A stretch of 64,000 nucleotides of DNA from Patescibacteria group bacterium. Its GTDB lineage: Bacteria; Patescibacteriota; Minisyncoccia; Phycocordibacterales; PALSA-1337. The translations under genes and the position numbers were made by a program. Positions 3,710-64,000 of the stretch are shown here, one piece after another. Location: positions 7,894 to 71,893 of the forward strand of contig JBBTRA010000001.1 in the NCBI GenBank assembly GCA_038065415.1, written 5' to 3'. Below the pieces are notes generated by a model. It did not search any database, was not told the DNA's origin, and saw only the letters and a list, made by a program, of their open reading frames with translations. How positions within the stretch are numbered: the first letter of the stretch is position 1; every line of letters begins with the position of its first letter.

Positions 3710-4405
3710 ATGTCCCTGTCTCTCTCCCTCCGCTCCCAACTCACCCAACGGACCAACTTGCGCCACTATTTGGGCTTGCGTCACAGTCTGAACCTGGAAC
3801 AAAGATGCGAACTGCGTCAAGAATTGGTCAAAAGCGACTCTGACCGGTACCGCGAATTCCTCGGTTTCATCAGCTCTATGCATGGCGTCAAAATGTTGCC
3901 GGCAGCAACCTGCCCCAAATGCTCGACGGGTTTGCAAATCGCGGAGATCGTGCTCGGCTTCAAAACCGATGTCAACGACTTCACGACGCAGTGCCCAAAA
4001 TGCAAGGTGCGCTTTGAGCCAACCAATCTGCTCAGTTTCCAAACTGGGCGCGAGGTAGGGTTCTACTGCAATCCGCAAACTCGAAACCAGTTGCCAGGAA
4101 AGGAGACCTTGGAGCCGGCAGATTTTGAGAAGCAATTCTCGGAAGTCTACTACTCCGCCCTCTTCTGGTTCGGCAGCCTCTTCAATGCGTTCAAGATGGT
4201 TGGAATCGAATACCGCCGCGAAAAGTTCGACCTCAAGACGAAAGCTCGGACATGTCTGGGCAAAGTCTCTGACCAGGACATTTCGAGAATCTTCGGGCTC
4301 CGCATCAAGGAAGTCGCCGAGATGCGGAAGACACTCAAAATTCCGGCGTACACCGGAAAGAAGAGTATCATCCCGGCAAACTGGTCTTTGAGCTTCTCAG
4401 CCTAA
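3710..4405 (+). CDS. Hypothetical protein with a CPKC...CPKC zinc ribbon and a possible C-terminal HTH
   Basis: 231-aa ORF. Two CPKC pairs are present (CPKCSTG..., CPKCKVRF). The C-terminus (DISRIFGLRIKEVAEMRK) looks like a helix-turn-helix. It is divergent from the response regulator. Confidence 0.45.
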   Translation: MSLSLSLRSQLTQRTNLRHYLGLRHSLNLEQRCELRQELVKSDSDRYREFLGFISSMHGVKMLPAATCPKCSTGLQIAEIVLGFKTDVNDFTTQCPKCKVRFEPTNLLSFQTGREVGFYCNPQTRNQLPGKETLEPADFEKQFSEVYYSALFWFGSLFNAFKMVGIEYRREKFDLKTKARTCLGKVSDQDISRIFGLRIKEVAEMRKTLKIPAYTGKKSIIPANWSLSFSA

Positions 4406-17944: not shown

Positions 17945-19480
17945 ATGCTCAAAAAACTCCTCGCCAAATTGAAAAAACACCCTCTCGCATACGGAGGTGT
18001 AATCCTCGTACTCATAGTCATCATTGCCATCTCTATCTTCGGAGGAGGTGATGAATCTGAGCAGACCATGATTGCGACTCGTGGCGAATTTTTGAGCGAA
18101 GTATCTGCTTCAGGGAAAGTGATTGCCGCTCAAAGCTCCAATCTCGGTTTTGACCAGAGCGGCAGGGTTGCAGGAGTGTATGCACAAGTAGGAGACACTG
18201 TTCTGCGTGGCTCGACTCTCGCGAGCATCGAAAACGGCACCATCCGAGCCGACATAACTCAAAAACAGGCAAATCTAGAAAAAGAACGAGCAAATCTGGT
18301 TTCGTTGAAGCGTGGCACACGCCCTGAGCAGTTGGCACTCACTCAACAGAAATACTCAGACGCTTCCTCAGCACTCAGTATCAGCATGAAAGATGCATAC
18401 TTGAAGACGGAAAATGCAATCCTCAGCCAGGCCGACACGATATTTGAGCATGGCAACGGCGCAAATCCCCGCATCACTATTGCTACCCAGAATGATACTG
18501 AGGAAAAAAGCATACAAAGCGAGCGCATCATCGTTGGTGAGAAGCTCTCTGCTTGGAATGAACAGCTGAAGCTCCTACCGGCATCCCCGACGGCATCGGC
18601 CATCAATACTGTTCGTGCAGCAGGAACAGACGCAATGTCCTATACTCGGAGTTTCCTAGATCGTTTGGGGGGTATTGCAAGCAGACTCTCAGTTGCAGGT
18701 TCTGGCATGACTCAGAGTGAAATAGATTTGATCCGAACAACCATCAATGCAGCTGGTCAGGCAGCAAGTACAGCAGTTTCCGCAGAACAAGCTTCGTATG
18801 CAAGCTGGACAGTTGCTTCCAACAATCTCAGCCTAGAAAAGTCAGGTTCTACACCTGAGGATATTGCTGCTCAAGAGGCTCAAGTAAAAGCCGCGGAAGC
18901 TGACCTCATCAGTGCAGAGGCTCAACTCAGGAAAACGCTTGTCATAGCTCCATTTGATGGCATAGTCACCAAGATGGATGTTAAGATCGGTGAAATATCA
19001 TCTCCGAGCGTATCAAGCATCGCTATGATCGGTAGTGGTCTCTACGAGATCGAGAGCTATATCCCGGAGGTCAATATCGCACGCCTCTCCGTCAACAACC
19101 CAGCAACGATCACTCTCGATGCATATGGATCGGATATTGAGTTCCCTGCTACCGTGATAGCTATCGACCCAGCAGAAACCATCCGCGACGGAGTATCAAC
19201 CTACAAAACCCGATTACAATTTGCAGAAAATGATCCTCGCATCAAACCTGGTATGACCGCAAACATCCGTATCACTACGGAGAAGAAAGCTGGCGCCATC
19301 GTCATTCCTAGAAGCATCATTGCTGAGAAAAATGGCCAGAAGACTGTCCGTATCAAGGTGGGTGATGAGATTCGCGAAGTATCCGTACAGACAGGTAGCA
19401 TGACCCCACTCGGTCAGATAGAGATCACATCAGGAATCTCCGAGGGCGATATCATCGTACTTCCTGCGCTGATCCCATAA
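17945..19480 (+). CDS. HlyD/MacA-family periplasmic adaptor (membrane fusion protein)
   Basis: N-terminal TM segment, a long coiled-coil and a C-terminal beta-barrel region. It is followed by permease and ATPase genes. Confidence 0.75.
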   Translation: MLKKLLAKLKKHPLAYGGVILVLIVIIAISIFGGGDESEQTMIATRGEFLSEVSASGKVIAAQSSNLGFDQSGRVAGVYAQVGDTVLRGSTLASIENGTIRADITQKQANLEKERANLVSLKRGTRPEQLALTQQKYSDASSALSISMKDAYLKTENAILSQADTIFEHGNGANPRITIATQNDTEEKSIQSERIIVGEKLSAWNEQLKLLPASPTASAINTVRAAGTDAMSYTRSFLDRLGGIASRLSVAGSGMTQSEIDLIRTTINAAGQAASTAVSAEQASYASWTVASNNLSLEKSGSTPEDIAAQEAQVKAAEADLISAEAQLRKTLVIAPFDGIVTKMDVKIGEISSPSVSSIAMIGSGLYEIESYIPEVNIARLSVNNPATITLDAYGSDIEFPATVIAIDPAETIRDGVSTYKTRLQFAENDPRIKPGMTANIRITTEKKAGAIVIPRSIIAEKNGQKTVRIKVGDEIREVSVQTGSMTPLGQIEITSGISEGDIIVLPALIP

Positions 19481-19485
19481 AACAC

Positions 19486-20742
19486 ATGTCATCACTGCTC
19501 AACACCCGTATCGGATTCTTCCTGGCAGTCCGCCAGATCAAGCGTTCCAGCAAGTGGACGACTGGCCTCATCGTGGCTGTGATGATCCTGACCTCACTCA
19601 ACCTCATTGTGGTGTCTGGCATCCTCGTCGGCCTCATCCAGGGCGCCATCGATGCTGTGCGCACTCACTACACCAGCGATGTCATCATATCGACCCTCAA
19701 CAACAAGACCTACATTGAAAATACTCCTGAGATCATGAACATCCTCCGAGGCCTACCCGGAATTGAAACCGTTGCACCTCGCTACCTCAAAGGCGCAACA
19801 CTCGAAGCGAACTACAAGACCCGTGTCAAAGATACCGACAAGCCGAACACTGCGGGCGGCAACATCGCTGGTATAGATCCTATAGCTGAAGACAAAGTTA
19901 CAGATCTTTCACGCTTCGTCGTAGAAGGTTCGTATCTTGAACCAGGTGACTATGATCAGATCCTCGTCGGTTCGTATCTCATCAAGAAGTATCAACCATT
20001 CGAATCCCCCGGCTTCACAGCCCTCAACGACGTCGAACCAGGCACCAAGATCCGCATCATGGTGGGTGATGTCGAGCGTGAGGTCACCGTCAAAGGTATT
20101 ATCAAGAGCAAAGTCGATGAAGTGAGCTTTCGATCCTTCATGGTCGATTCCCAATTCAGGAGCATGATCGGCCGTGGAGACTACAACGCCTCTGAGATAG
20201 CCATCAAACTGAAACCAGGCGCAGACCCTGAGACTGTGCGTGACGCCCTGCTCCGCAATGGTGTCGGGACTGTGGCAAAGGTGCAGACATATGCAGATGC
20301 TCAACCAAAGTTCATCAAAGACTTGGTAGCAACCTTCGCCCTCCTCGGTAACATGATCAGCTCCATCGGTCTCGTGGTTGCGTCCATCACTATCTTCATC
20401 GTTATCTTCATCAACGCTATCACTCGCAGGAAGTTCATCGGCATATTGAAAGGTATCGGCGTCAACGGCAAGGCAATCGAGATATCCTATGTGTTCCAGT
20501 CGATATTCTATGCAGTCATCGGGTCTGTTATTGGCGTCGCACTCGTCTACCTAGTCATCCAGCCTTTCTTTGCAGCACATCCTATCAACTTCCCCTTCAG
20601 CGATGGTATTCTCGTTGCCCCATTCGGTGGCACAATGGCGCGCACCGGCCTCTTGGTCTTCACGACGATTGTCGCCGGATACATTCCCGCTCGCATGATC
20701 GTCAGGAAGAACACACTGGATTCGATACTTGGTCGCAAATAG
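19486..20742 (+). CDS. ABC transporter permease, FtsX/MacB-like
   Basis: 418 aa. It has an N-terminal TM segment, a large periplasmic domain and three C-terminal TM segments (FtsX fold). Confidence 0.8.
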   Translation: MSSLLNTRIGFFLAVRQIKRSSKWTTGLIVAVMILTSLNLIVVSGILVGLIQGAIDAVRTHYTSDVIISTLNNKTYIENTPEIMNILRGLPGIETVAPRYLKGATLEANYKTRVKDTDKPNTAGGNIAGIDPIAEDKVTDLSRFVVEGSYLEPGDYDQILVGSYLIKKYQPFESPGFTALNDVEPGTKIRIMVGDVEREVTVKGIIKSKVDEVSFRSFMVDSQFRSMIGRGDYNASEIAIKLKPGADPETVRDALLRNGVGTVAKVQTYADAQPKFIKDLVATFALLGNMISSIGLVVASITIFIVIFINAITRRKFIGILKGIGVNGKAIEISYVFQSIFYAVIGSVIGVALVYLVIQPFFAAHPINFPFSDGILVAPFGGTMARTGLLVFTTIVAGYIPARMIVRKNTLDSILGRK

Positions 20743-36648: not shown

Positions 36649-38757
36649 CTAGTACTTATTGCGTATAATCCATTGAGCCGGCCTACCTTTCACCTGAATA
36701 TACTTCTCTACTTCCGTATAATTGCCAGCTTTATCATATGCACGCAAATTCACAGACACCAATCCCGGATCAGTGAATGGTACATACGTCTGCTTTCCTA
36801 CCGGGAGATACAGATCACTTCCATCTATGTCGACATACATCGTACTCTGTAGACCACTACCCGTATCCTCTGCCTCAAACTCGAACCTCACCACGTCGCC
36901 CACGTCGACACTATCCGCACTGGATCTGATTACTGCACCCGTCGGTGGAGCAGTATCGATCATAACCCGGTAATGACGCACCTCGCCAAGTTTACCCGCA
37001 ACGACAGGAGCCACATGAAAATAGAAAATCCCATCACTAGGAGCAAGGAGTGTTGCGTTCTCCCCTGATGAGCGTACACCTCCCACAGGGATCGTGCTGG
37101 AATCCTGATCGAGCGCATATACAAACTCTGTCGTGCTAGCTGAACTGATCCAAGAGAACTCGAGCTTTCTCGAAGCATACCAACGGCTTCCATTGGGATG
37201 TGTCGGAGAATGCACAATGAGGGTGGATGCAACATTATCTATGAAGCGGTAATTGCCATCAACCGCGATGCGCAAGACATTAGTGCCGAGCCCATCATTG
37301 GCGAGCACCTCTGTCTCATCTGTAAAGATAAAATCCGTAGAACCCGCTTTCTTCGGCTTGAAGATAATATTCGCAATCACACCCGATGAGCCGGAGAAGC
37401 CCGGAGACACGAGTCCGCATGCAATCCTCACTTTCCCCTCCGAAGATTCTATACTCCTCTCCAAGAAGTGGGTACACAGTGAATTCTCGGTGCGCATATC
37501 CATTACCTCGATAATATCGGGATCATACTCCATGATGGCAGCAACCGCATTGATTCGCTCACTGCCCGTGTTCACAAGAATAGCGACACTGCGCTCGAAC
37601 CTAACATCAAAAACTCCCTGCTCAGGTTGAAGACGCATAGTTGAGTTGTACAATATGTACGGGATTGGTCTGAGTTGGGCATATGGCACGAACGGTACAC
37701 GCGACAAAATGACCATGGCTGCAGCAATCAGAAAAGCAAACGTAGCGAGCGACCAGTAATAATAACGCGTACGCAAGGCCGCGGAAGGATGCTTCTGTAT
37801 GACAGCAAACGCGAAGACCGCTAAAGCAAGTAGAATGATGCCCATGCGTACAGGGGCAGAATATCCATGATACGGGACAAGAATGAGCGCGCCTCCTGGA
37901 TTCGTAGCCTCTAGACCAGGGAACTGCACATTCTCAACTTGGTAGTACGGACCCTTGCCCAGACGGACCAGTGTGCCTGTCTTACCGAGGCGTATCCAGT
38001 CTGAGTCTATATTGAAGTACGAGACGATCATCTGCCGCATCTCAGGGTCCGAAATAGAAGAACCATAAATACCATAATCTCGTGTATAGAAAATAACTTC
38101 TACACCTGGCCGCATGTAACGCTCAGCAAAACGCTCAGCATAAGGATCATCCATGAGATAGTTCGCAAAAACCGCCCCGAGCATCGTACCACCAGCATCA
38201 TATACGTGCCTACCCGTCGTCATCAGGAGCTGTACAGGATCAAAACTACTCGCTTCCACCGACGCTACTTCACGTGCACCGGCCCTGATCGCACGCCCTT
38301 GAGGTGATGTCAGGAAAACATTCTCACCCGTACTCGATGCGCTCCGAGTACGGGTGAGAATGATACCGTGAGAGTCAGCGAATCCCATCAGACCGATGCT
38401 TCGCGCATCCTTTTCTGCACGAAGAAGCTCTAGGATAGCAGAAGGATTACCTGACGATGCGGCTTCTTGGAACCGTTCCGTATTCGCTACAGCATTCCCT
38501 TGTGTTATTAGATAGGATTTGTCCGTCGAAATTCCTCTATCAAAATCCTGACGCGAGTCCTGCGTCTTGGAAGAGGTCCAAAAACAGGTCCCGTACATGA
38601 CAACAGCAGTCAGTAGAACAAAGACACCCACAGCAGATGCAGAGGCGATTCGCAAAGATGGAGAGTTCCAAAAGAATTTTCGCCGAGAAGGCTTCATAGC
38701 TGGTACAAGTATAGCAGAGTACTGAATCACGACGAACCTTCTAATCCGGATTGACAA
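36649..38757 (-). CDS. Large membrane-anchored extracytoplasmic protein, hypothetical
   Basis: About 680-700 aa. The likely start is MKPSRRKFFW at 38697. It has an N-terminal TM anchor and a beta-rich C-terminal region with Ig-like character. Confidence 0.5.
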   Translation of the reverse strand: MSIRIRRFVVIQYSAILVPAMKPSRRKFFWNSPSLRIASASAVGVFVLLTAVVMYGTCFWTSSKTQDSRQDFDRGISTDKSYLITQGNAVANTERFQEAASSGNPSAILELLRAEKDARSIGLMGFADSHGIILTRTRSASSTGENVFLTSPQGRAIRAGAREVASVEASSFDPVQLLMTTGRHVYDAGGTMLGAVFANYLMDDPYAERFAERYMRPGVEVIFYTRDYGIYGSSISDPEMRQMIVSYFNIDSDWIRLGKTGTLVRLGKGPYYQVENVQFPGLEATNPGGALILVPYHGYSAPVRMGIILLALAVFAFAVIQKHPSAALRTRYYYWSLATFAFLIAAAMVILSRVPFVPYAQLRPIPYILYNSTMRLQPEQGVFDVRFERSVAILVNTGSERINAVAAIMEYDPDIIEVMDMRTENSLCTHFLERSIESSEGKVRIACGLVSPGFSGSSGVIANIIFKPKKAGSTDFIFTDETEVLANDGLGTNVLRIAVDGNYRFIDNVASTLIVHSPTHPNGSRWYASRKLEFSWISSASTTEFVYALDQDSSTIPVGGVRSSGENATLLAPSDGIFYFHVAPVVAGKLGEVRHYRVMIDTAPPTGAVIRSSADSVDVGDVVRFEFEAEDTGSGLQSTMYVDIDGSDLYLPVGKQTYVPFTDPGLVSVNLRAYDKAGNYTEVEKYIQVKGRPAQWIIRNKY

Positions 38758-59344: not shown

Positions 59345-60607
59345 TTAGCCGATGACGCTCTTCCCCATATATTTCACGAGTGCATCGGGCACCTTGATCG
59401 TCCCATCAGCTTGCTGATAGTTCTCGATAAGTGAGACGAGGATACGCGGTGTCGGTATGGCGGTAGAGTTGAGAGAGTGAGCGTACTTCAGCTTGCCATC
59501 GGCGTCCTTGTAACGGATATTCAGTCGGCGTGTCTGGAAATCGTGGAAATATGAAGCGGAAGAAATCTCTCGATACGTACCTTCCTTAGGGACCCAGAGT
59601 TCGATGTCATATTTCTTGACCTGTCCCAGACCAAGATCGCCTCCACAATTGATGACGGTATGGTACGGAATACCAAGTGACTCAATGAAAGTCTCGGTAT
59701 TACGATTGAGCTCCTCATGATACTTGACTGAGGTTTCGTGATTGGCTTCACACAGGATGAGCTGTTCAAACTTGTAAAATTCATGGACACGGATGAGACC
59801 ATTGGTATCTTTGCCATGTGCTCCAGCCTCACGGCGGTAGCATGGTGAAAATCCGAGGTAACGCTTCGGTAGATCTCCGAGTGCCAGCGTCTCCTCTGCG
59901 TACATACCCATGAGTGGAACTTCGGCAGTGCCTGCGAGCGCATCACCATCCTGAGTCATATAGAAATCCTCGATGTCACCCGGGAGATGCGCAGTGCCGT
60001 ACAGATTGATCTTGCGTACGATAGTCGGAGGCATGACTGGCACGAAGTCCTTGGAACCGAAAAATTCGAGGGCGTAGTTCCAGATAGCGAAGCAAAGGCG
60101 TACACCATCACCGGTCAGATAGTACCCACGGAATCCGTGAACCTTGGATCCGCGCTCGAAGTCGACCATGCCGAGCTTGGTCATAAGCTCTACATGATCC
60201 TTGGGCTCAAATGCGAATGTCGGCTTGTCGCCCCACACCTTGATCTCCTTGTTGTCTGCATCAGTGTCGCCATCGGGTACAGACATATCAGGCACATTGG
60301 GGACGCGGAGCATGAGGCTCTGCCAATCGGTCATGATCTGCTTAAGCTCGGCTTCGTCTGCTTCCATGGCTGTTTTGACCTCTTTCATGGCAGCGATAAG
60401 TTTGGCACGCTCCTCTGGATTTTGTGCGCTTGCGATACCTGCGTTGGCAGCATTCTGCTCTGCGCGGCGCGTCTCAACGCTGGAGAGTACGGTACGGCGG
60501 CGGTCATCGAGGGCAATAAGCTCAGCGACATCAAATTTGACGTGCTTCTTCTTGGTGGCAAGCTCGATGATATCCTTGTTTTCGCGGATGAATTTGATGT
60601 CTAGCAT
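59345..60607 (-). CDS. serS: Seryl-tRNA synthetase
   Basis: It has an N-terminal coiled-coil arm and the class II motifs (FRREAGAHGKDTNGLIRVHEF, GGDLGLG). Confidence 0.9.
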   Translation of the reverse strand: MLDIKFIRENKDIIELATKKKHVKFDVAELIALDDRRRTVLSSVETRRAEQNAANAGIASAQNPEERAKLIAAMKEVKTAMEADEAELKQIMTDWQSLMLRVPNVPDMSVPDGDTDADNKEIKVWGDKPTFAFEPKDHVELMTKLGMVDFERGSKVHGFRGYYLTGDGVRLCFAIWNYALEFFGSKDFVPVMPPTIVRKINLYGTAHLPGDIEDFYMTQDGDALAGTAEVPLMGMYAEETLALGDLPKRYLGFSPCYRREAGAHGKDTNGLIRVHEFYKFEQLILCEANHETSVKYHEELNRNTETFIESLGIPYHTVINCGGDLGLGQVKKYDIELWVPKEGTYREISSASYFHDFQTRRLNIRYKDADGKLKYAHSLNSTAIPTPRILVSLIENYQQADGTIKVPDALVKYMGKSVIG

Positions 60608-60695
60608 GCGAATAGTGTATCATATTGATATCTTTTTTTGAATTTCTCCGGTTTCTGCGTGTGACTACCCTATTATCAATATAAGTTTAAATCTC

Positions 60696-60801
60696 AGCGG
60701 GATGTGACATGTGTTTTTTGTGTGGTTATGTCGTGTTTGTACACTACACATCAGTGAACCGTTCCGCATAACCACACAAAAAACACATGTCACATCCCGC
60801 T
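60696..60801. repeat. Perfect 35-bp inverted repeat with a 36-bp spacer in the serS/dprA divergent intergenic region
   Basis: The left arm (60696-60730) is AGCGGGATGTGACATGTGTTTTTTGTGTGGTTATG. The right arm (60767-60801) is its exact reverse complement. Confidence 0.9.
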
Positions 60802-60820
60802 ACGGTAACATCTTAAAATC

Positions 60821-61741
60821 ATGAACATACAAAAGATCAAAAGGAGAGACTACCCTTTCCTTCTAAAACAAATCCGTCAGTTGACTCCAGATATGGACAT
60901 TATCGGCACTATGCCGCCTGACGAATACAAATTCCTGTGTATCGTTGGATCACGAACCTACAGCACATATGGCAAAGATGCTTGTAAGAAACTTATTCTT
61001 GGACTGCGAGGATACCCAATAGTTATAGTATCAGGCTTAGCCGTGGGTATAGATTCTATTGCCCACGAAGCTGCTCTCGAAGCGGGACTAAAGACGATAT
61101 CATTTCCTGGATCAGGTTTGGATCCTTCAGTTCTATATCCATCTTCCAAGAGATACCTCGCTGAACAGATAATAAAAAGTGGTGGGGCGCTGATCTCACG
61201 TTTCAATCAACTGCAGAAATCAGATATCTGGACATTCCCTTCTCGCAACCGCCTCATGGCTGGCATATCCCACGCCACTCTCGTTATTGAAGGTCGGCAT
61301 GGATCAGGAACATTGGGTACTGCAAAATATGCAGAGGAATTCAACCGTGATGTACTCGCCGTACCCGGTCCCATCGATTCCGAACTGTCATACGGCCCTC
61401 ACATGCTCATCAGGCGAGGCGCAACTCCTATCACATCATCAGAAGATATTTTGGAGGCACTCGGGTTCACCGATACAACGAGATATGATGACGAAAAGAG
61501 AGTTCCGAAGAAACATTCACGAAGTAACAGAAGCACACAACTAACCATTAACCTCGACCAGATATCACTATCCCCTGACGAGAAAGCAATCTGCACCCTC
61601 ATCAAAGATGAAAGCCTCTCTGCAACTGAACTCATAGAGAAAACTTCCTTACCCGTATCGCTCTTCAACATCACCGTGACAGAACTAGAGATGAAAGGGT
61701 TCGTGAGCGAAGAGGGTGGAAGATACAGGATGATAAGGTAA
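60821..61741 (+). CDS. dprA: DNA-processing protein DprA (Smf)
   Basis: It has a Rossmann-like DprA domain (VSGLAVGIDSIAHEAAL...GTLGTAKYA) and a C-terminal wHTH. Confidence 0.85.
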   Translation: MNIQKIKRRDYPFLLKQIRQLTPDMDIIGTMPPDEYKFLCIVGSRTYSTYGKDACKKLILGLRGYPIVIVSGLAVGIDSIAHEAALEAGLKTISFPGSGLDPSVLYPSSKRYLAEQIIKSGGALISRFNQLQKSDIWTFPSRNRLMAGISHATLVIEGRHGSGTLGTAKYAEEFNRDVLAVPGPIDSELSYGPHMLIRRGATPITSSEDILEALGFTDTTRYDDEKRVPKKHSRSNRSTQLTINLDQISLSPDEKAICTLIKDESLSATELIEKTSLPVSLFNITVTELEMKGFVSEEGGRYRMIR

Positions 61742-61761: not shown

Positions 61762-61790
61762 TTGACTTTGCATTTCAATGCTGTAATACT
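61762..61790 (+). promoter_or_regulatory. Candidate topA promoter: TTGACT, about 17 bp, TAATACT
   Basis: TTGACTTTGCATTTCAATGCTGTAATACT lies immediately upstream of the topA ATG at 61799. Confidence 0.4.
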
Positions 61791-61798
61791 TAGCTTCA

Positions 61799-64000
61799 AT
61801 GAAGCTCGTCATAGTCGAGTCACCGTCAAAATCAAAGACTATCACCAAATATCTCGGTGATGGTTTCGTAGTGCGTGCATCCGTTGGTCACGTACGCGAC
61901 CTCCCCAAGTCCAGCAAGAAAGCTATAGATATAGAAGGAGGATTCATTCCCCACTATGAAGTCGTCGCCAAGAAAGAGGCGGTCATTGCCGATATCGCCA
62001 TTCAAGCCCAGAAAGCTGACGAGATCATCCTCGCTTCCGACCCGGACCGCGAAGGTGAAGCTATCGCCTGGCATGTTGCAGAAGTATTGCGCGACCGTCT
62101 CGGCGCCTCCGTCAACAAAAAGCTCAAGCGCATCACCTTCCACGAGATCACCAAGGAGGCCATCCTCGATGCACTCGCCCACCCGCGCGAGATTGATGAG
62201 AATCTCAAAGAGGCTCAGGAAGCCCGTCGCGTCCTCGACCGTATCGTAGGTTACGACCTCTCGGGTCTCATCTGGAAAAAAGTCCGCTACGGACTCTCCG
62301 CTGGCCGCGTACAATCCCCCGCACTCCGCATAATAGTAGAGCGCGAACGCGAGATCAAAGCATTCATCCCCGAGACATACTGGGCTCTCGCCGGACAATT
62401 CAAAACCCCGAAGAACGAGATCCTCCACCTCATTTGCTCCAAGGAACCCCGTGATAAGAAAGAGGTCGACACTATTCTCGCCACAGCCAAAAAGGAAGAC
62501 TGGAAAATCATAGATGTTGAGGAGTCCGAACAGAAGAGGTCTCCTCGCGCCCCTTTCATCACCTCCACCCTCCAACAGGCAGCTAGCTCGCGTCTCGGCT
62601 TCTCCCCATCACGCACCATGGGTATCGCGCAGAAACTCTATGAGTCTGGAGCGATCACCTACATGCGTACCGACTCCACCAACCTGGGCCAACAAGCACT
62701 CGATCAGATAGGCAGCATCATCAAGAAAGAGTATGGCGAAAAATATATCTCATTCAGGAAGTATTCGGCCAAGAGCAAAAATGCCCAAGAAGCCCACGAG
62801 GCAGTGCGTCCAACTCATTTCGACAAACAGAACGCCGGCCACAACGACGAGCAGAAGAGACTCTATCGCCTGATCTGGCAGAGAGCAGTGGCATCGCAGA
62901 TGGCGGACGCCCAGCTGGCTCGTACCAAAATCATCGCCAATGTCAGTAGCGACAGCATTCCTGACTTCGAGGCTACCGGATCACGCATCCTCTTCGATGG
63001 CTGGCTCAAGGCCGATCCCGAGTCAAATGGTGAAGAAGTCACCCTGCCAAAATGTGCTCGTGATGAGAAGCTCGACCTGATCTCCGTCGATTCACAGGAG
63101 AAGCAGACTCTGCCACCTCCACGCTACACCGAAGCAGGCCTCATCAAAGAGCTTGAGAAGCGTGGCATCGGACGCCCATCGACATATGCTTCGATCTGCA
63201 AGACCATCGAGGACCGCGGGTATGTCGAGAAGGAGGGTCGTGCACTCAAACCTACCGATACCGGCGAGGTTGTTTCGTCATTCCTGGAAGAATACTTCCC
63301 TACCTACATCGGCGACACCTTCACCGCAGAGATGGAGGACAAGCTCGACGGCATCGCCAACGGCACACACAAATATCTCGCCACTCTCAAAGAATTCTAC
63401 GGACCATTCCACAAAGAAGTACTCTCCAAGGAGAAGGTCGCCAAAGCCACCGACCTCGGCGCTGCAGATCCAAAATTTATATGTCCAAAATGTGGTACCA
63501 CTCCTCTCGGAATCAAACTGGGTAGAAATGGCAAGTTCCTCTCCTGTACCCGCTACCCCGACTGCGATGGAGCCCTCACTCTCGAAGGTGTCGAATTCAA
63601 AAAAGATGAGCCGATCGGTACTGATCCAGCGACAGGACTCCCTATCTTCGTCTTGAATGGCCGCTTCGGTCCGTATGTTCAACTCGGTGTGAAGCCACCA
63701 AAGATCAAGAAAGTTCGCGTAAAGAAGCCAAAGAAACCCAAAGTCAAAAAATCAAAGAAAGGAGAGCCTGTCGAAGTGACCCCGACCGAAATCTCAGCCA
63801 CTGAGTCACCTACTGAACAAGTGCCCGCGCTAGAAGCCCTCGTCATTCCTGCGGTACCTGTGGTAAAGCCGCGCATGGCATCCATCCCCAAGACCATGGA
63901 CCCATCCAAGGTCACCGTCGCAGATGCACTCAAGTATCTCAGTTTGCCACGCAGCCTCGGTATCGATCCGAAGACCGGCTTTGATGTGATCGCCTCAAAT
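61799..64000 (+). CDS. topA: DNA topoisomerase I, with the 3' end outside the window
   Basis: It starts MKLVIVESPSKSKTITKYLG (TOPRIM) and has a catalytic Tyr region, a C4 zinc ribbon (CPKCG...CTRYPDC) and a Lys-rich tail. It runs to the window edge. Confidence 0.9.
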   Translation, partial: MKLVIVESPSKSKTITKYLGDGFVVRASVGHVRDLPKSSKKAIDIEGGFIPHYEVVAKKEAVIADIAIQAQKADEIILASDPDREGEAIAWHVAEVLRDRLGASVNKKLKRITFHEITKEAILDALAHPREIDENLKEAQEARRVLDRIVGYDLSGLIWKKVRYGLSAGRVQSPALRIIVEREREIKAFIPETYWALAGQFKTPKNEILHLICSKEPRDKKEVDTILATAKKEDWKIIDVEESEQKRSPRAPFITSTLQQAASSRLGFSPSRTMGIAQKLYESGAITYMRTDSTNLGQQALDQIGSIIKKEYGEKYISFRKYSAKSKNAQEAHEAVRPTHFDKQNAGHNDEQKRLYRLIWQRAVASQMADAQLARTKIIANVSSDSIPDFEATGSRILFDGWLKADPESNGEEVTLPKCARDEKLDLISVDSQEKQTLPPPRYTEAGLIKELEKRGIGRPSTYASICKTIEDRGYVEKEGRALKPTDTGEVVSSFLEEYFPTYIGDTFTAEMEDKLDGIANGTHKYLATLKEFYGPFHKEVLSKEKVAKATDLGAADPKFICPKCGTTPLGIKLGRNGKFLSCTRYPDCDGALTLEGVEFKKDEPIGTDPATGLPIFVLNGRFGPYVQLGVKPPKIKKVRVKKPKKPKVKKSKKGEPVEVTPTEISATESPTEQVPALEALVIPAVPVVKPRMASIPKTMDPSKVTVADALKYLSLPRSLGIDPKTGFDVIASN

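Follow-up and report, generated by a model that had tools for sequence, protein, structure and literature searches.

The intergenic region between the divergent genes serS and dprA of a Patescibacteria genome contains a long perfect palindrome that is real, conserved and previously undescribed, and that is tied to dprA in one Patescibacteria clade. The comparison of related loci establishes it as a palindromic cis-element upstream of dprA, single-copy in the DNA searched, that is specific to this clade, with arms whose sequence drifts but which remain exact Watson-Crick complements of each other, and with a spacer that is conserved among close relatives and inverted, replaced or shortened between lineages. 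The palindrome is probably an uncharacterised control element for dprA, and its evolution by template switching acting on a DNA palindrome is reasonably well supported by the sequence comparisons. The favoured reading, advanced tentatively, is that of a DNA-level structural control region (hairpin or cruciform) that would be under selection, would be maintained by template switching, and would hold or abut a weak, near-leaderless dprA promoter.

Structure of the palindrome

The whole stretch of DNA analysed, referred to as the window, has a length of 64 kb. As described in the first-pass annotation, with which both the coordinates and the sequence agree, two arms of 35 nt that are exact reverse complements of each other (AGCGGGATGTGACATGTGTTTTTTGTGTGGTTATG on the left) enclose a spacer of 36 nt, giving a total of 106 bp inside the 213-bp divergent spacer of serS and dprA (Table 1). 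A query with the arm allowing up to 3 mismatches gave two matches in the window, both of which are the arms of the palindrome itself, and none of 100 shuffles gave any match. The expectation for a perfect inverted repeat of 35 nt with a spacer of at most 100 nt is approximately 5e-15 per 64 kb. A weaker repeat continues into the flanks of the palindrome (56 nt, 82%). The identical element is found in a 149-kb ENA contig from Hainich groundwater and in the NCBI assembly GCA_964357625.1, which are independent assemblies of the same organism, indicating that the palindrome is not an assembly artefact. Folding of the RNA from each strand, which had been proposed as a check, gave values far below those of shuffled controls for both the + strand (-70.9 kcal/mol, z = -10.2) and the - strand (-76, z = -8.4), and the DNA fold behaved in the same manner (-45.9, z = -11.8).

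Table 1. Features of the serS-dprA region and of the adjacent genes in the window
Feature	Position	Strand	Description
serS	59345-60607	-	420 aa; Pfam PF02403, PF00587
Predicted serS promoter	60614..60642	-	TTCAAA (60642-60637), 17 nt, TG-A-TACACT (60622-60614; TGATACACT), 6 nt, ATG at 60607
Left arm	60696..60730		35 nt; holds the family-conserved GGGA(G/T)-TG-(A)CATGTGT-TTTT stretch
TTGTGT, -35-like	60718-60723		Within left arm
Spacer (hairpin loop)	60731..60766		36 nt; 31/36 the same as in the L011 spacer
TGTACACT	60738-60745	+	In spacer; has the form of the genome's own extended -10 promoters; oriented to dprA
Right arm	60767..60801		35 nt; exact reverse complement of left arm
A-tract and CACATG	60778-60789		In right arm; ~32-43 nt 5' of dprA ATG; expected -35/UP positions of a near-leaderless promoter
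Gap between palindrome and dprA ATG	60802..60820	+	19 nt; G-poor, without Shine-Dalgarno sequence
TAACAT, candidate -10	60806-60811		In gap, 9 nt from dprA ATG
dprA	60821-61741	+	306 aa; Pfam PF02481, PF17782; N-terminus conserved among orthologues
Predicted topA promoter	61762-61801	+	TTGACT ... TGTAATACT, 8 nt, ATG

An intrinsic terminator scan gave none at the palindrome; no T-run flanks it, and the region lies at the starts of the two adjacent genes. A sigma-70 scan was uninformative. With Rfam 15 at the gathering threshold, the sole passing match in the window is a tRNA located elsewhere. At E <= 10 the palindrome gives only sub-threshold matches to miRNA precursors, on both strands, which are a generic response to any long hairpin, and no match to a T-box, the type that would be expected for serS. 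A role of the spacer as an sRNA seed or as a repeated binding site was discarded, given that its matches elsewhere in the window are not above chance, and the 42-aa open reading frame at 60665-60793 (-) was likewise set aside, as it has no Pfam match.

Some further features of the window were recorded. Possible sites of the parS, IHF and CRP-like types were noted. Each arm holds an alternating purine-pyrimidine tract of 7-14 nt (ACATGTGT, GTGCATGTGTGT, GCATACGTAC and others), potentially Z-DNA-prone, at 60705-60712 in the window and at the equivalent positions in relatives; descent combined with a transition bias may explain these tracts. A 13-nt exact match to the arm, TGACATGTGTTTT (-), at 19479-19491, lies over the start-codon context AAAACACATG of a gene starting at 19486, and probably reflects a shared A-rich start context. 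An imperfect inverted repeat of 27-33 nt, 85% complementary and with an 8-nt centre, is found at 38308-38373 inside a 702-aa open reading frame (36649-38757, -), and its sequence is unrelated to that of the palindrome.

Conservation in related genomes

By its DprA homologues, the window belongs to Patescibacteria/CPR, close to Parcubacteria of the Ca. Taylorbacteria type. Related loci were obtained through DprA homologues, contig look-ups and one anchored metagenome scan. With the serS promoter as anchor, the metagenome collection yielded four loci, of which L020 and L021 were useful, one belongs to Taylorbacteria and one is a chance match. The order of the genes is kept in the relatives, with a D-Ala-D-Ala carboxypeptidase gene, a hypothetical gene and serS on one strand, and dprA, topA and, further on, parB on the other. 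Eight related Patescibacteria genomes have a long hairpin at the same site (Table 2), with arms of 34-44 bp in most lineages and of 18 bp in one (L024), and two more loci (L026 and L014) have partial hairpins that are cut by contig ends. A Ca. Taylorbacteria locus (L017/L018/L019; DprA identity 55%) has a spacer of 125 bp without a hairpin. A literature search gave no paper joining Patescibacteria to such hairpins, nor dprA or topA to cruciforms.

Table 2. Hairpins at the serS-dprA site in the window and in eight related genomes
Locus	DprA identity to window	Arms	Loop	Hairpin end to dprA ATG
Window		35 nt, perfect	36 nt	19 nt
L011	75%	42 nt, perfect	36 nt	14 nt
L012	64%	40 nt, 1 mismatch	38 nt	14 nt
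L028	65%	40 nt, perfect	38 nt	16 nt
L020		41 nt, perfect	14 nt	15 nt
L021	71% (own alignment)	42 nt, perfect	34 nt	16 nt
L023	66%	34 nt, two T.G	33 nt	14 nt
L015	58%	38 nt, 3-nt internal loop	38 nt	51 nt
L024	66%	18 nt, perfect	10 nt	12 nt

The end of the hairpin is found 12-16 nt from the dprA ATG in seven of the eight orthologues, the exception being L015, and the distance to the serS ATG varies between 61 and 107 nt. The steady distance to one start codon and the variable distance to the other indicate that the palindrome belongs to dprA and not to serS. With respect to serS itself, the first ~14 and the last ~28 residues of the SerRS of L021 are of the L011 type and the middle is highly divergent, with an overall identity of ~45% to the SerRS of the window; this serS looks like a mosaic or recombinant gene with an unchanged promoter.

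Copy number and the mobile repeat alternative

Four explanations had been offered in the first-pass annotation for a palindrome of this length, namely a MITE-like miniature element, a REP/BIME-type repeat, a binding site for an oligomeric regulator, and a cruciform-forming structure. The last of these survives, as a cruciform or hairpin in the promoter region; the two mobile options are not supported, and the operator is unlikely. The idea of a MITE, REP/REPIN or Correia-like repeat that landed between serS and dprA draws on the size of ~106 bp and on the terminal inverted repeats, which are MITE-like, and also on the presence of two copies in inverse orientation in L015. Indeed, MITEs, Correia elements and REPINs share with the palindrome a length of ~100 bp, the terminal inverted repeats and an intergenic location, and they may likewise bear promoter parts and form RNA hairpins.

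Unlike these elements, the palindrome is present as a single copy in the window, as determined by the arm search, by scans for long inverted repeats and by blastn-short with the arm, the loop and the flanks, and a covariance model built from six hairpins matches only orthologous sites in 217 kb (the window and the fetched related loci). Among the GTDB representatives (596 Gb, a set from which the source genome is evidently absent), a 20-mer of the arm gave one single-arm chance match, in a Corynebacterium MAG; a 16-mer searched against IMG/VR gave two single chance matches and nothing related, the serS-promoter anchor gave one unrelated match in the same collection, and blastn against phages and plasmids gave no match. 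A target-site duplication abutting the arms is found neither in the window nor in the orthologues with full flanks. The TTAAA(A)TC-like duplication that had been suspected does not hold, since its two copies are non-identical and lie 3 and 11 nt from the arms, and no orthologue has flanking direct repeats.

The palindrome is located at one and the same orthologous site in genomes that are deeply diverged and in which synonymous positions are near saturation: identity at four-fold degenerate sites of the flanking genes is 0.40-0.44 for the window and L011, and 0.38 for L012 and L028. Furthermore, the two copies of L015 share the loop and not the arms, which is the opposite of what is seen for terminal repeats bound by a transposase. 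From the DNA searched, a mobile repeat is extremely improbable. The REP/BIME/REPIN type, which comprises high-copy short palindromes that are usually found at gene 3' ends together with a RAYT transposase, was rejected given that the palindrome is single-copy in the DNA searched, is located between two gene starts and has no transposase-like gene among its called neighbours. It had also been put forward that an element that is unique in its genome and not conserved in orthologous spacers would speak for a local operator instead of a mobile element; the palindrome is unique in the DNA searched, but its structure is strongly conserved.

Evolution of the arms and of the spacer

In an alignment of six sequences with a consensus helix of 38 pairs, changes on both sides with the pairing kept were found at 24 of the 38 pairs, and one-sided changes of the wobble type are absent from the arms. 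The proportion of paired cells is 98.2%. In column shuffles it is 78.2%, with none of 500 attaining the value of the real alignment, and sliding the 3' partner by 1-3 columns lowers it to 33-59%. Across ten hairpins, 359 pairs are of the Watson-Crick type and 7 are not (4 G.T, 1 A.C and 2 other mismatches), the lean of the wobble-type mismatches towards G.U on the dprA-sense strand (4:1) being not significant. This near-absence of wobble pairs fits a constraint acting on both DNA strands better than one acting on a single RNA. The arm portion (A/C)ATGTGTGTTTT is common to six lineages, while the arm sequence is wholly different in L015 and L023, and unrelated also in L024, with pairing kept.

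It is possible that the palindrome is the operator of a dimeric or oligomeric DNA-binding regulator of dprA, in line with its palindromic symmetry, its overlap with the likely promoter and the arm portion shared by six lineages. Nonetheless, a classical operator is very unlikely because the arm sequences are replaceable, as in L015, L023 and L024, and because the spacing of the half-sites varies by more than 25 bp. In addition, operator half-sites are all much shorter than these arms of 35-44 bp, and protein binding does not predict that each substitution be mirrored exactly.

The spacers follow a different course. The loops of the window and L011 are in the same orientation, and conservation between close relatives is ~85%. 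The loops of L012 and L028 are identical at 32 of 38 positions as reverse complement only, at loci where the genes have the same orientation. The loop of L020 retains only ~14 nt of the L012-type loop, loops of different groups are unalignable, and lengths across the family range from 10 to 38 nt. In L015, a second hairpin is located in the dprA-topA interval (about 4042-4165), so that dprA is bracketed by two inversely oriented copies; their 38-nt loops match at 34 of 38 positions as reverse complement only, and their arms are unrelated save for an ACATGT core. The orientation of the loop agrees in independent assemblies of the same lineage (window/L001/L005, L012/L013 and L015/L016), giving no sign of rapid flipping. 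The small inversions associated with plastid hairpins are the same phenomenon as spacer inversion by template switching. In these non-coding hairpins the loop flips repeatedly and the stem is kept, as in the palindrome; they are mostly 3'-end RNA stability elements, whereas the palindrome lies in a bacterial 5' promoter region and its loop is conserved in sequence among close relatives.

Both hallmarks of template switching are thus present, namely mirrored substitutions in the arms with few intermediates, and inversion of the spacer between related sequences. Since perfect arms, mirrored substitutions and inverted spacers are the expected products of template switching between the arms, this mechanism is proposed here: conversion within the palindrome would give rise to the perfection of the arms and to the flipped spacers, and selection would hold the palindrome in place, with its end 12-19 nt from the dprA start. 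That template switching homogenises the arms of inverted repeats and inverts their spacers is documented, and the quasipalindromes in which this was described (Lavi et al. 2018, PMC5941160; Abraham & Hazkani-Covo 2021, PMC8604942; Monttinen & Loytynoja 2022, PMC8794818) share with the palindrome the homogenised arms, the simultaneous substitutions on both arms, the inversion of the spacer between lineages and a repeat that is better conserved than the surrounding DNA. The published repeats are mostly short, with arms of ~5-16 bp and spacers of a few bp, whereas the palindrome family has arms of 34-44 bp and spacers of 14-38 nt, and, unlike the published cases, the palindrome is kept at one regulatory site throughout the clade.

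Given that arm homogenisation and spacer inversion require no selection (PMC5941160, PMC8794818, PMC8604942), the palindrome could be functionless and self-perpetuating, with template switching keeping the arms perfect and mutational inertia accounting for its persistence. The replacement or shortening of the spacer (14 nt in L020 and 10 nt in L024) with the locus kept, and the lack of a hairpin at the Ca. Taylorbacteria locus L017, are in line with this. It is, however, quite unlikely, because nine lineages (that of the window and its eight relatives) have the palindrome at one site and at a fixed spacing from dprA although four-fold sites are near saturation, and because the hairpin, including the loop, retains an identity of 0.83-0.90 between the window and L011 where the neighbouring spacer DNA is essentially unalignable. 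Long palindromes are normally deletion-prone, which also counts against a lack of function.

Promoters and the proposed control of dprA

In the genome of the window, Shine-Dalgarno sequences are rare and many genes have TGnTAnAnT located 6-10 nt before the ATG. Examples of an extended -10 (TGnTAnAnT or TGTAnACT) near an ATG were seen at 60607-60642 (-), 61762-61801 (+), 55979, 57433, 38716, 10781 and 3470 (-). From these start contexts, mRNAs of the leaderless or near-leaderless type seem to predominate in the organism; a literature search gave no paper focused on leaderless mRNAs in Patescibacteria, the two terms occurring together in only two papers. The predicted serS promoter has this leaderless-type arrangement and lies wholly outside the palindrome. 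Its motif, TAGTGTATCATA-N13-TTGAATTTC, shows no variation between the window and seven orthologous loci, with L023 and L024 deviating, and both the serS and topA promoters are almost invariant in most of the related genomes.

For dprA, neither a Shine-Dalgarno sequence nor a strong extended -10 is found. Given that Shine-Dalgarno sequences are rare in this genome and that TGnTAnAnT stands close to the ATG, the promoter of dprA would have to overlap the palindrome. The candidate -10 in the gap is weak and poorly conserved (TAACAT, CATACT, TAACCA, TAACCC and others), and an A-tract with CACATG is present ~30-45 nt 5' of the dprA ATG in six lineages, as read by eye from the sequences. TGTAnACT occurs 4 times in the window, two of these being evident promoters and one being in the spacer. 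In both the window and L011, TTGTGT in the left arm is followed after 16 nt by TGTACACT in the spacer, oriented to dprA. This spacer motif is confined to the group of the window and L011, being absent from the other spacer groups, and the TGTAATGT of the L012 type is mutated in L028. No promoter motif 5' of the hairpin is shared by the orthologues, and several hairpins have an AT-rich -10-like hexamer immediately to their left (TATAAG in the window and in L020, and TATAAT in L024).

According to the favoured reading, the palindrome would act on the DNA as a structure-forming region that overlaps the weak dprA promoter, with the right arm covering the -35/UP positions and, in the window and L011, with the spacer adding the extended -10 TGTACACT. 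Its location between the divergent serS and dprA is where negative supercoiling driven by transcription would peak, and at such a position the transcription of dprA would be tuned, either through extrusion of the palindrome or through a protein recognising its structure. Hairpin promoters of the N4 virion RNA polymerase, Frpo and twin-domain supercoiling are known systems in which structure or supercoiling is at play. Structure-dependent promoters (those of the phage N4 virion RNA polymerase and the single-strand promoters of plasmids, such as Frpo) have a DNA hairpin at the promoter, as proposed for the palindrome, and cruciforms driven by transcription between divergent promoters share with it a position where negative supercoiling would accumulate. 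The stems of the N4 and Frpo type have 5-20 bp and small loops, whereas the arms of the palindrome are longer and its extrusion is putative. By our own estimate, the extrusion of a cruciform has a high energetic cost with spacers of 30-38 nt, and the weak and variable candidate -10, the spacer motif limited to one group and the 51-nt distance in L015 count against the favoured reading.

The main rival to this DNA-level reading is an RNA leader. In this case dprA would be transcribed from the left of 60696 and the palindrome would form a very stable stem-loop at the 5' end of the mRNA, which could protect it from 5' exonucleases, be processed by RNase III, or position the ribosome on the start without Shine-Dalgarno sequence located 12-19 nt downstream. 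Covariation is the classical signature of RNA, the RNA fold is very stable, the short and G-poor distance to the AUG is constant, and the -10-like hexamers to the left of the hairpins could serve as promoters for such a transcript. Of the wobble-type mismatches, 4 of 5 are G.U on the dprA-sense strand, and the orientation of the loop would be irrelevant to a pure stability element, as in plastid hairpins. On the other hand, the conservation of promoter motifs is striking at serS and topA and absent 5' of the hairpin, G.U pairs amount to only 4 of 366, and the spacer is conserved in sequence among close relatives, something that a pure stability stem does not need. The leaderless-type starts that prevail in this genome, and the lack of an Rfam family beyond the generic sub-threshold matches to miRNA precursors on both strands, also speak against an RNA leader.

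Template switching, however, can also keep the stems of RNA genes perfect, and for this reason the scarcity of G.U pairs is compatible with an RNA role. Overall, an RNA leader is rather unlikely, with counter-evidence that is not decisive. The ompA, pnp and rnc leaders are known 5'-UTR stabiliser or RNase III hairpins, and like the palindrome they have a long stem near the start codon; their stems have bulges and G.U pairs, whereas those at the dprA site are perfect on both strands.

The arrangement of promoter elements in the window and L011, with TTGTGT, 16 nt and TGTACACT oriented to dprA, would also be in line with a miniature invertible promoter (phase switch), in which each arm carries a -35 and the spacer a -10, and a flip of 36 bp directs transcription to or away from dprA. 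Since the arms are identical, the promoter geometry would survive the flip of the spacer, and inverted spacers are indeed observed between L012 and L028 and between the copies of L015. The palindrome resembles the invertons described with PhaseFinder and DeepInverton in having inverted repeats around a short intergenic segment beside a gene start, and in showing opposite orientations in related genomes. Unlike invertons, it has no invertase gene nearby, no recombinase domain being found among the neighbours in any locus examined, and its spacer is 3 to 20 times shorter than is typical. Published invertons are mostly of 100-300 bp, and for known invertases a spacer of 10-38 bp is much too short. 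Invertons occur in both orientations, while independent assemblies of the same lineage agree in the orientation of the spacer, and spacer groups other than that of the window and L011 lack the promoter motif. A phase switch is for these reasons improbable. A variant in which no recombinase is needed, with spacer inversion by template switching turning the transcription of dprA on and off in these regulator-poor, ultra-small CPR bacteria, is conceivable from the sequences and of very low probability.

Significance for Patescibacteria and for genome assembly

The genomes of Patescibacteria (CPR) are tiny and encode few transcription factors, and hardly any of their regulatory DNA or RNA has been characterised. 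These bacteria are believed to rely on DNA uptake, a process that involves DprA. A palindrome at the dprA start that is conserved in structure and free in sequence would be among the first candidate cis-regulatory elements in these bacteria, and it is a useful entry point into gene regulation in CPR. The palindrome is also an unusually clean natural case of concerted evolution within a palindrome, with perfect arms, mirrored substitutions and a flipped spacer. A mutational process at the DNA level can yield strong 'compensatory' covariation, which is a warning that such covariation is not automatic evidence for a structured RNA.

The palindrome also has practical consequences, given that it breaks contigs and that in-frame ATGs in the right arm inflate the DprA calls of databases. 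Contigs often end inside it (n=7): this is the case for the Logan k=31 contigs L002, L003, L006, L007 and L014, the last one from a relative, and for the JGI contig L013 and the NCBI contig L026, both from relatives. Since the perfect arms are longer than the k-mer of the assembler, assemblies fragment exactly at the regulatory region of dprA. In several lineages (L012:6001-6069, L028 and L020; proteins P0002, P0003 and P0005-P0010), the reading frame of dprA is shared by an ATG within the right arm (AAAACACACATG), and as a consequence database DprA entries are called 20-55 residues too long (327-361 aa versus about 306). Mini-ORFs that start from the arm ATG were considered as coding and rejected, because their frame and length vary between lineages when the sequences are read by eye. 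In the window, the same arm ATG (60787) opens an upstream open reading frame of 9 codons that ends at 60816.
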